Shown: piece by piece, positions 43,600-45,300 of the stretch
Position numbering within the stretch: position 1 is the stretch's first letter
Layout: each line of letters starts with the position of its first letter
NCBI RefSeq assembly: GCF_022846255.1
Contig: NZ_AP025682.1
Source: Escherichia coli
GTDB lineage: Bacteria; Pseudomonadota; Gammaproteobacteria; Enterobacterales; Enterobacteriaceae
DNA length: 64,000 bases
Strand: one strand, 5' to 3'
Made by a program: the position numbers and the translations under genes
Notes under the pieces: generated by a model
Databases searched by the model: none
What the model was told of the DNA's origin: nothing
Seen by the model: the letters and a program-made list of their open reading frames with translations, nothing else

Positions 43600-45300
43600 C
43601 GGACACTCTCGTGTAAAAAGCTACCCTGTCTATGGATATAGCGATATCCACTCATCAAGCGTGGACTGAATGATATTCAGCTCCATATGGGCGGAAACCT
43701 GGAGGATAAATACGATTTCGCCGTTGGAATCAAGGTTGTTCTGCAATATCTACCAGACTGCTTCAATTTATCTGTTTTGGCAGTGCAATAATCTTAATTT
43801 AACTATTTGAAGATGATGATATTGTCAGATGCCAGAAATTTAGTAATCTGGAGAACCGTGTCTATGATCACTAAATATTAAAGTAATAGTCGATAATTCA
43901 GTAGCACATCGGGTAATATAACGTATTGATACATAATCATATTAAAAAATTCGTGATTAAATAACATAAGAATATGTTTTATTATCATTAAAAAACCTTC
44001 TATTTCCATCATCCTTAAGATAATAAAACAGCGAATGATGGATAACTTGACCAGAAAAACAAGCAAGCATATAAAATTAAAAAATATGATTCCACTTTCA
44101 TTTTTATAAAATGGCATCGTGAAGAGCGAGTTGATAATGCTGCAATGCATCAGCGTCCTGTCCAGCAGTTTCATAAATTTTGGCAATGTTATAATAGGAG
44201 TTAGCGCGCGTTGTCGCCGCATTTACCCCACTCGCTAACGAGATCGCTTTACGATTTGCCCAAATTGCTTCCGCTATGTTGCCATTTTTCTGATACGCCA
44301 GACCCAGGTTACTAAATGCCTGTCCGTAATTGCCGTCTAATTCTGTTGCCTGTTGGAAGAGTTGAATGGCTTGCTCAAGTTGACCGGTTTTATAAACAGC
44401 TTCACCTTCGCGATTATATTTTCTTGCCAGTTGAGTATCTCCACTGTTTTGCATCGCAGGCGAAGCCGGAGCTGAAGAGTCCGTCGCAGGCATTATCACA
44501 GTGGCTAAATCCCTGACGTCTAATGTGGTGTCGTTAAAATTGGCGCTGGTAACAGAGTTGATATCTTCAAACTCGCCGTTTGGATTGAGTTTAAACACGG
44601 TCCAGATGTTCCCTCGTTTTCCAGCAGGGACACTATAACTACGTACCAGGGAGCTCCCTACATAAACAAACACTCTTGCCTTACTGGCAGAGAGATAATT
44701 ACTGTTGGGCAACCCTTTATTGCTATAGTCCTGCACGGCATAGATGTAACTTTCACCAAAATGCTTTTTGCTGATAGTGACAGTTTCTGGTCCATAGCTA
44801 TCCGTATCATCAACATCCAGATTGGCATCAGTTCCCTCTTTACTATCAAAATAGATATGTCCGCCAGGGAAGATCAAATGCGAATCAAGATCAAAAGGCT
44901 TTTCGCCCCAGCTCAAAACTACACGCATGCCATCCAGATTCGTCATCACCGGACTGATAGCATAAGTCATGCCAGCGCACGGACATTTGACCACCAGATT
45001 GGAATACCCCTCTTTTTTGACGATTAATAGAGCATCTTTATTATCAGCAAATGAAGTCCCCAAACTAATGCTGCCCGAAGTATTTGTGGTTCCAGAAACA
45101 GATTGTGCGCCATTGCGTTGCAGCGTCATCGATGCTCCTTCAATGCGTTTATCTTTCACTGTCGCACTTAAAATATCGATATTTACATCGGCCGCATAAA
45201 CGTCCGAATTTATACCCATCAGGGCCAGAGCAACCGGCAGAACAATTTTCTTCTTGTATAAATGCTTTTACAGAACGGAGAGGGGATATTTTGCCGGGCA
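43600..45300. other. AT-rich strain-specific segment between cydAB regulatory region and sucD/sdhX (boundaries approximate)
   Basis: Composition visibly more A+T-rich than the flanking core genes; carries one ORF; no integrase or flanking direct repeats recognised. Confidence 0.55.
44104..45219 (-). CDS. Hypothetical multi-domain protein: signal-peptide-like N-terminus (encoded upstream of first ATG), beta-rich N-terminal and central domains, Pro/Ser/Ala linker, three C-terminal TPR repeats
   Basis: 371 aa ORF-track ORF; TPR-like repeats recognisable in the last 110 residues; in-frame upstream codons 45267-45220 encode KHLYKKKIVLPVALAL. Confidence 0.6.
   Translation of the reverse strand: MGINSDVYAADVNIDILSATVKDKRIEGASMTLQRNGAQSVSGTTNTSGSISLGTSFADNKDALLIVKKEGYSNLVVKCPCAGMTYAISPVMTNLDGMRVVLSWGEKPFDLDSHLIFPGGHIYFDSKEGTDANLDVDDTDSYGPETVTISKKHFGESYIYAVQDYSNKGLPNSNYLSASKARVFVYVGSSLVRSYSVPAGKRGNIWTVFKLNPNGEFEDINSVTSANFNDTTLDVRDLATVIMPATDSSAPASPAMQNSGDTQLARKYNREGEAVYKTGQLEQAIQLFQQATELDGNYGQAFSNLGLAYQKNGNIAEAIWANRKAISLASGVNAATTRANSYYNIAKIYETAGQDADALQHYQLALHDAIL

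Follow-up and report, generated by a model that had tools for sequence, protein, structure and literature searches.

The AUU start codons of infC and pcnB are maintained features of functional genes. They are also the only confirmed non-canonical starts in Escherichia coli, a species in which reporter data place initiation, relative to AUG, at 0.02-3% for AUU and CUG and at 0.01-1% for other codons (Hecht et al., 10.1101/063800). Pseudogenes that arise by mutation of the start codon or ribosome-binding site offer a second point of comparison for the locus described here, and an intact allele of the same gene offers a third: in strain AZ159 it lies downstream of mngB and is listed in RefSeq as the 397-aa 'tetratricopeptide repeat protein' WP_000725054.

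The window that we analyzed is a stretch of 64,000 nucleotides of E. coli DNA (assembly GCF_022846255.1, contig NZ_AP025682.1), whose minus strand carries sucB, sucC, sucD, a 371-codon ORF and cydA. The ORF, at 44104-45219 (-), is very probably a copy, now decaying, of an Escherichia accessory gene for a 397-aa exported protein, and it carries three ancestral lesions. The features of this locus to which we refer are the following:

45366..45383, minus strand: terminator hairpin of the sucABCD operon (sucD 3' UTR), ~100 nt upstream of the dead start
45268..45270, minus strand: upstream in-frame stop TAA, present also in the intact sucD-adjacent alleles, 4 codons ahead of their ATG
45263..45267, minus strand: degraded Shine-Dalgarno sequence AAGCA, which is AAGGA in intact alleles, 7 nt before the start; G to C at 45264
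45253..45255, minus strand: AAG at the ancestral ATG position; T to A at 45254 on the coding strand, by comparison with SCU-172, MS 21-1 and AZ159
45193..45255, minus strand: remnant of a 21-codon Sec-type signal peptide, (K)KKIVLPVALALMGINSDVYA, with predicted cleavage after VYA and the mature start at 45192 (ADV...)
45217..45219, minus strand: ATG used by ORF callers and PGAP, corresponding to Met-13 in the former signal peptide's hydrophobic core, without a Shine-Dalgarno sequence
44104..45219, minus strand: 371-codon ORF as called, a probable truncated remnant of the 397-aa secreted protein
44938..45081, minus strand: mosaic patch, codons ~59-106, over which the window shows no difference from the ST131-type intact allele
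44125..44126, minus strand: junction left by a deletion of ~260 bp, as judged against intact alleles; codons 378-397, the stop, the terminator hairpin and ~170 bp of spacer are gone
44104..44124, minus strand: foreign C-terminal tail LHDAIL and its stop TAA, encoded by DNA that used to be intergenic

An earlier, sequence-only reading of the window had drawn attention to signal-peptide-like codons that lie upstream of ATG 45219 with no canonical start in their frame, and this description proved exact to the base. From 45270 on the minus strand the frame runs TAA AAG CAT TTA TAC AAG AAG AAA ATT GTT CTG CCG GTT GCT CTG GCC CTG ATG GGT ATA AAT TCG GAC GTT TAT GCG and, past the cleavage site, GCC GAT; after the TAA at 45270-45268 it translates as KHLYKKKIVLPVALALMGINSDVYA followed by AD. 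Between that TAA and ATG 45219 the minus strand has no in-frame ATG, GTG or TTG, only ATT 45246 and three CTG codons. Over the 23 codons that begin at 45255, 21 residues are identical to the intact signal peptide and cleavage region of SCU-172, the differences being M1K and A17S; judged by this match, the resemblance to a signal peptide upstream of 45219 is homology and not chance. The absence of a Shine-Dalgarno sequence at ATG 45219, also claimed earlier, was borne out by an anti-SD duplex of -2.4 kcal/mol, as compared with -5.4 to -9.8 for sucB, sucC, sucD and cydA in the same window. Translational coupling to the upstream ORF that ends at TAA 45270 was considered and rejected, as that frame has no start codon. 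A 50-codon, ATG-initiated ORF at 45149-45301 (-) overlaps the dead start in another frame; it has no obvious Shine-Dalgarno sequence and is probably spurious.

The intact 397-aa product is predicted to begin with a Sec signal peptide, followed by two beta-sandwiches, the first transthyretin-like and the second TerD-like, and by three TPR repeats with a capping helix. AlphaFold2, run on an alignment of 22 sequences, returned a model with a mean pLDDT of 82.5 in which the signal peptide precedes one beta-sandwich at residues 23-100 and another at 110-236, and a linker then leads into seven helices (271-396). The predicted fold of the middle domain is TerD-like. The alignment has 72 invariant columns, among them W332, P156, I338, E362, Y386 and R392. 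Searches of Pfam and NCBIfam with the protein gave generic TPR matches only, a PDB sequence search gave only TPR proteins, and the first 245 residues of the exported family have no Pfam family. A JGI label for WP_000725054, 'YfaP (DUF2135 family)', was not reproduced with Pfam. Literature searches for DUF2135/YfaP, for the RefSeq accessions and for c0807, presumably the CFT073 locus tag of this gene, found nothing on it.

Scanning one genome per species turned up 31 related loci, distributed over Pseudocitrobacter, Enterobacter, Pectobacterium, Cellvibrio, many Bacteroidota, a Nitrosomonadales MAG, Sulfuricurvum and Helicobacter. The Pseudocitrobacter gene likewise lies directly after sucD. 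All 27 full-length homologs examined, which come from Pseudocitrobacter, Enterobacter, Pectobacterium, Cellvibrio, Bacteroidota and Campylobacterota, have a canonical start and then a signal peptide, two of them of the lipoprotein type, just before an (I/V)LSA(T/V)VKDK motif; across these and the intact E. coli alleles the start codon is ATG in nearly all cases and GTG in three. The E. coli member is 42-63% identical over its full length to those of Bacteroidota, Cellvibrio, Sulfuricurvum and Helicobacter. This exported family of transthyretin-like, TerD-like and TPR modules is uncharacterized and probably horizontally spread, and our finding flags it, as a widely distributed one, for functional interest. 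The window ORF keeps the core motifs of the two-beta-sandwich family (LSA.VKD, W.....D.D.H and LDVDDT..GPET) and the signal-peptide codons, but its start codon is AAG, and in place of the complete three-TPR module with its capping helix it has residues 378-397 replaced by LHDAIL.

We compared the locus by megablast with 5426 complete E. coli genomes. The gene is present in 1110 of them, in two genomic contexts, and ~80% of genomes lack it altogether. In SCU-172, MS 21-1 and ST131-type strains the start region reads aaGGAtttatacATGaagaaaattgtt, which encodes MKKIVLPVALAL(M/L)G...YA, with cleavage ahead of ADV, in a 397-aa protein; relative to these the window has aaGCAtttatacAAGaagaaaattgtt. 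The AZ159 start region, aaaaaGGAtttatacATGAAGAAAATTGTT, is translated as MKKIVLPVALALLGMNAGAYA before ADV, and the window aligned to it reads taaaaGCAtttatacAAGAAGAAAATTGTT. Comparison with orthologous loci, which had been proposed along with the original observation, therefore did find an intact upstream ATG (SCU-172, MS 21-1, AZ159), and, contrary to the condition named there as refuting the observation, the orthologs do not begin at the equivalent of 45219, a codon that is TTG (Leu-13) in the ST131-type allele of AZ159.

For an allele census we used a 55-nt query whose middle position is the second nucleotide of the start codon, so that the 28-nt exact word of megablast forces a match at the central base. 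The AAG version found in the window occurs in 540 of the 5426 genomes (433 perfect matches and 107 with a single mismatch), and its carriers include CFT073, UTI89, APEC IMT5155 and Seattle 1946. The ATG allele in its AZ159 version, downstream of mngB, occurs in 565 genomes, O25b:H4-ST131 among them, and the window 55-mer edited back to ATG matches 6. These numbers add up to 1111, accounting for the 1110 gene carriers. They also bear on the idea that the start codon was misread or misassembled, the sequence-only reading having put forward an error in the sequence as one explanation: nothing beyond the oddity itself speaks for such an error, and because the same AAG 55-mer recurs in 540 independent complete genomes, as 433 identical and 107 single-mismatch copies from many laboratories and sequencing platforms, it is excluded.

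Six complete genomes combine the sucD-adjacent context with taaaaGGAtttatacATGaag and the full 397-codon ORF. Two of these, SCU-172 and MS 21-1, have the window-like context, adjacent to sucD and lacking mngRAB, and encode the full 397-aa protein, MKKIVLPVALALMGINADVYA followed after cleavage by ADV... and ending in AYAEKNKPSYEEAIARVKAKM. This type of allele is, as far as the alignments tell, ancestor-like and reveals the ancestral state of the start. Intermediates with only one of the two mutations (GGA with AAG, or GCA with ATG) were searched for in the genomes and none was found. In E. coli strain E69, the GTDB species representative, the gene (1696-2429 of its locus) has an intact Shine-Dalgarno sequence and ATG, but residues ~89-239 are deleted internally with a change of frame, an independent inactivation of the gene.

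The ancestral start codon known from the intact orthologs is thus mutated in the window copy, and no in-frame canonical start with a ribosome-binding site is present to restore the full product. At the old start, the anti-SD duplex falls from -5.4 kcal/mol in intact alleles to -0.1 at the window AAG; ATT 45246 reaches -1.6, and every candidate start, ATG 45219 included, is at -2.4 or weaker. All 14 AAG alleles inspected (the window, 2A, CFT073, UTI89, FDAARGOS_536, IMT5155, FDAARGOS_1254, Seattle 1946, MS 57-2, JCM 20135, SC455, EcPF40, A22 and EC444) carry GCA and AAG together with a common 3' deletion junction. An incipient pseudogene that had lost its 5' end was another of the possibilities raised earlier; the first part of that suggestion stands, with both start codon and Shine-Dalgarno sequence mutated, and the second does not, since the change is a point mutation and the 5' end has not been deleted.

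The remaining suggestion had been initiation at a non-canonical codon. In this case the gene would be functional, starting at AAG 45255, ATT 45246 or a CTG and exporting low amounts of protein as a down-tuned allele, which we regard as very unlikely. The signal-peptide codons are indeed intact and in frame, and near-cognate codons do reach 0.02-3% of AUG in E. coli (10.1101/063800); however, the Shine-Dalgarno sequence has been destroyed along with the start codon. ATT 45246 in particular was rejected as a conserved non-canonical start: it is ancestral codon 4, it has no Shine-Dalgarno sequence, and the orthologs begin three codons upstream at ATG. A non-canonical start maintained as a mechanism also sits poorly with the 3' deletion and with the nonsense and frameshift mutations of the clade.

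At its 3' end the window ORF closes with ...QLA-LHDAIL and a stop. Along with the last 20 residues it has lost the end of helix 367-380, the whole of the capping helix 384-396 and the family-invariant Y386 and R392, and this loss of the capping helix and of invariant residues from the very allele that lacks a start argues against a functional gene read from a near-cognate codon. In FDAARGOS_536 a 1-nt difference at the deletion junction shifts the tail.

Further inactivating lesions and relaxed constraint were found within the AAG lineage. PGAP flags a pseudogene in 5 of 12 sampled relatives. A TGG to TAG change at the invariant W332 is common to CFT073, Seattle 1946, EcPF40 and EC444, and SC455 has a frameshift near codon 138. 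Substitutions private to the clade also fall on invariant residues, namely P156S (5 alleles), E362G (4 alleles) and I338F (1 allele). In the mature region, the non-synonymous to synonymous (N:S) count is 24:14 for states private to the AAG clade vs. 18:42 between the intact AZ159 and SCU-172 (Fisher p = 0.0017), or, at 3.43 non-synonymous sites per synonymous site, a dN/dS of ~0.5 vs. ~0.12, a contrast that samples 13 genomes of the 540 and overstates the relaxation somewhat, as N:S is usually higher for polymorphism than for divergence.

Two findings run counter to decay and would suit a gene that still functions from a non-canonical start: most clade members (the window and 8 of 13 sampled relatives) retain an open 371-codon ORF, and the dN/dS of the clade is ~0.5 and not 1. 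The first can be set against expectation. Stop-creating changes make up 4.0% of the possible single-base changes in the ORF, and the clade shows 1 nonsense event in ~39 private substitutions. One nonsense in ~39 substitutions is the neutral expectation, and the open frame is therefore not evidence of selection. Stop-creating changes as numerous as neutrality predicts, together with the tolerance in the clade of W332stop, the frameshift, P156S and E362G, weigh against a functional, non-canonically started gene.

In the mosaic patch at 44938-45081, ~20 sites differ between the window and the other sampled AAG alleles; the best full-length match of the window allele in complete genomes is only 98.0%. 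The patch looks like a recombination import, which points to a mosaic inside the pseudogene.

Another way for the locus to remain functional would be translation from ATG 45219, the PGAP start, with the resulting 371-aa cytoplasmic product kept for a new role. The codon is canonical, and PGAP gives an intact 371-aa 'tetratricopeptide repeat protein' in many genomes. We nevertheless hold this to be highly unlikely: the ATG has no Shine-Dalgarno sequence, the product would keep one half of the hydrophobic core at its N-terminus, ahead of an AxA site left uncleaved, the family is exported everywhere else (as predicted from signal peptides), and constraint is relaxed in the mature part, which has also taken further lesions. 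Moreover, PGAP picks the internal ATG even where the upstream ATG and Shine-Dalgarno sequence are intact, so that its use reflects propagation of an annotation and is not evidence of a start.

The finding is useful chiefly for annotation, and its consequences there extend beyond the window. In SCU-172 (2527-3720 of its locus) and MS 21-1, PGAP places the start of the intact gene at the ATG of codon 13, giving 385 aa (WP_024193058.1, WP_024198876.1), where the upstream ATG with its AAGGA Shine-Dalgarno sequence would give 397 aa and a complete signal peptide. The 385-aa start call seems to have been propagated from the pseudogene lineage, and calling the internal ATG hides the signal peptide where the true start is intact (WP_024193058.1, with 385 instead of 397 aa). 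The 371-aa RefSeq entries WP_000538732.1 and WP_148983762.1, among others, conceptually translate a gene that is without its start, Shine-Dalgarno sequence and C-terminus.

Both functional accounts can be cast as selection, the AAG/GCA allele then being a down-tuned or relocalized form favored in CFT073/UTI89-type lineages, through either trace near-cognate export or the cytoplasmic ATG-45219 product. Such a form is very unlikely in our estimation; if true, it would explain the open ORF in most of the 540 genomes. We instead favor the decaying copy with three ancestral lesions, and propose that they were acquired by the ancestor of a large E. coli lineage that includes CFT073 and UTI89, in which the gene follows sucD directly and mngRAB is absent. 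These lesions would have been the change of the start from ATG to AAG, the change of the Shine-Dalgarno sequence from AAGGA to AAGCA and a ~260-bp 3' deletion that took away the terminator along with the last 20 residues. That the signal-peptide codons are still in frame is probably due only to there having been too little time for scrambling. From the window allele probably no functional exported protein is made. We infer that near-cognate codons or ATG 45219 would support weak translation at most, the product being either a cytoplasmic protein that keeps half of the signal peptide or traces of a C-terminally damaged one.

The flanks of the gene differ between its two contexts. Compared with AZ159 over 44104-45470, the window lacks mngR-mngA-mngB between sucD and the gene. 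The terminators are alike, ggccatcttatgatggccttttt after sucD and ggtcatctccggatggccttttt after mngB in mng+ strains; the ~110 bp past the two terminators are ~70% identical and the gene bodies ~97%. An old rearrangement is suggested by this, or else a recombination event involving the sucD and mngB terminators. In a crude scan, restricted to the window, the interval from the sucD terminator to the gene had no predicted sigma-70-like promoter, and no Rfam family was matched at the gathering threshold in the sucD 3' UTR. Elsewhere in the window, three tandem matches to the Rfam family naRNA4 (REP-derived nucleoid-associated RNA), with starts 95 nt apart, lie at 51811-52071 (+) in a gap flanked by a ~930-codon ORF (48820-51621) and a 238-codon ORF (52078-52794). 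At 32979-33679 and 34606-34744 (-) lie seven clustered tRNA genes and a match to the CpoB/ybgF RNA thermometer (153.7 bits), both standard for this region of E. coli.

Across the species, the sucD-cydA locus falls into three states: the gene is absent (~80% of E. coli), intact (ST131-type and a few others) or dead (CFT073/UTI89-type). Lineages could be marked by which of the three states they show.

Set beside the known systems, the window ORF resembles infC and pcnB in having an in-frame ATT and no canonical start ahead of clearly coding sequence. Unlike infC and pcnB, its orthologs use ATG (or GTG) three codons before the ATT, the ATT has no Shine-Dalgarno sequence and the allele carries other inactivating lesions; the non-canonical start is not conserved, and the duplexes are -0.1 kcal/mol at AAG 45255 and -1.6 at ATT 45246. 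The mature region of the window copy is ~94-97% identical to that of the intact allele WP_000725054, but the copy lacks the start codon, the Shine-Dalgarno sequence, the last 20 residues and the terminator. Its sucD-adjacent placement is common to the six SCU-172-type E. coli genomes and Pseudocitrobacter, whereas WP_000725054 itself is encoded downstream of mngB. With pseudogenes produced by start-codon or ribosome-binding-site mutation it shares a point mutation of the ATG, loss of the Shine-Dalgarno sequence, a terminal deletion, later nonsense and frameshift mutations, a raised N:S and an annotation that moves to the next in-frame ATG. It departs from the usual examples in that the frame is open over 383 codons in most carriers, that the allele is fixed across a large, successful lineage (540 complete genomes) and that RefSeq treats the product as a normal protein as long as the copy has no second lesion. 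Together, these comparisons place the locus, by its present sequence, as a lineage-wide start-codon-loss pseudogene of an ordinary kind that has been mis-annotated.
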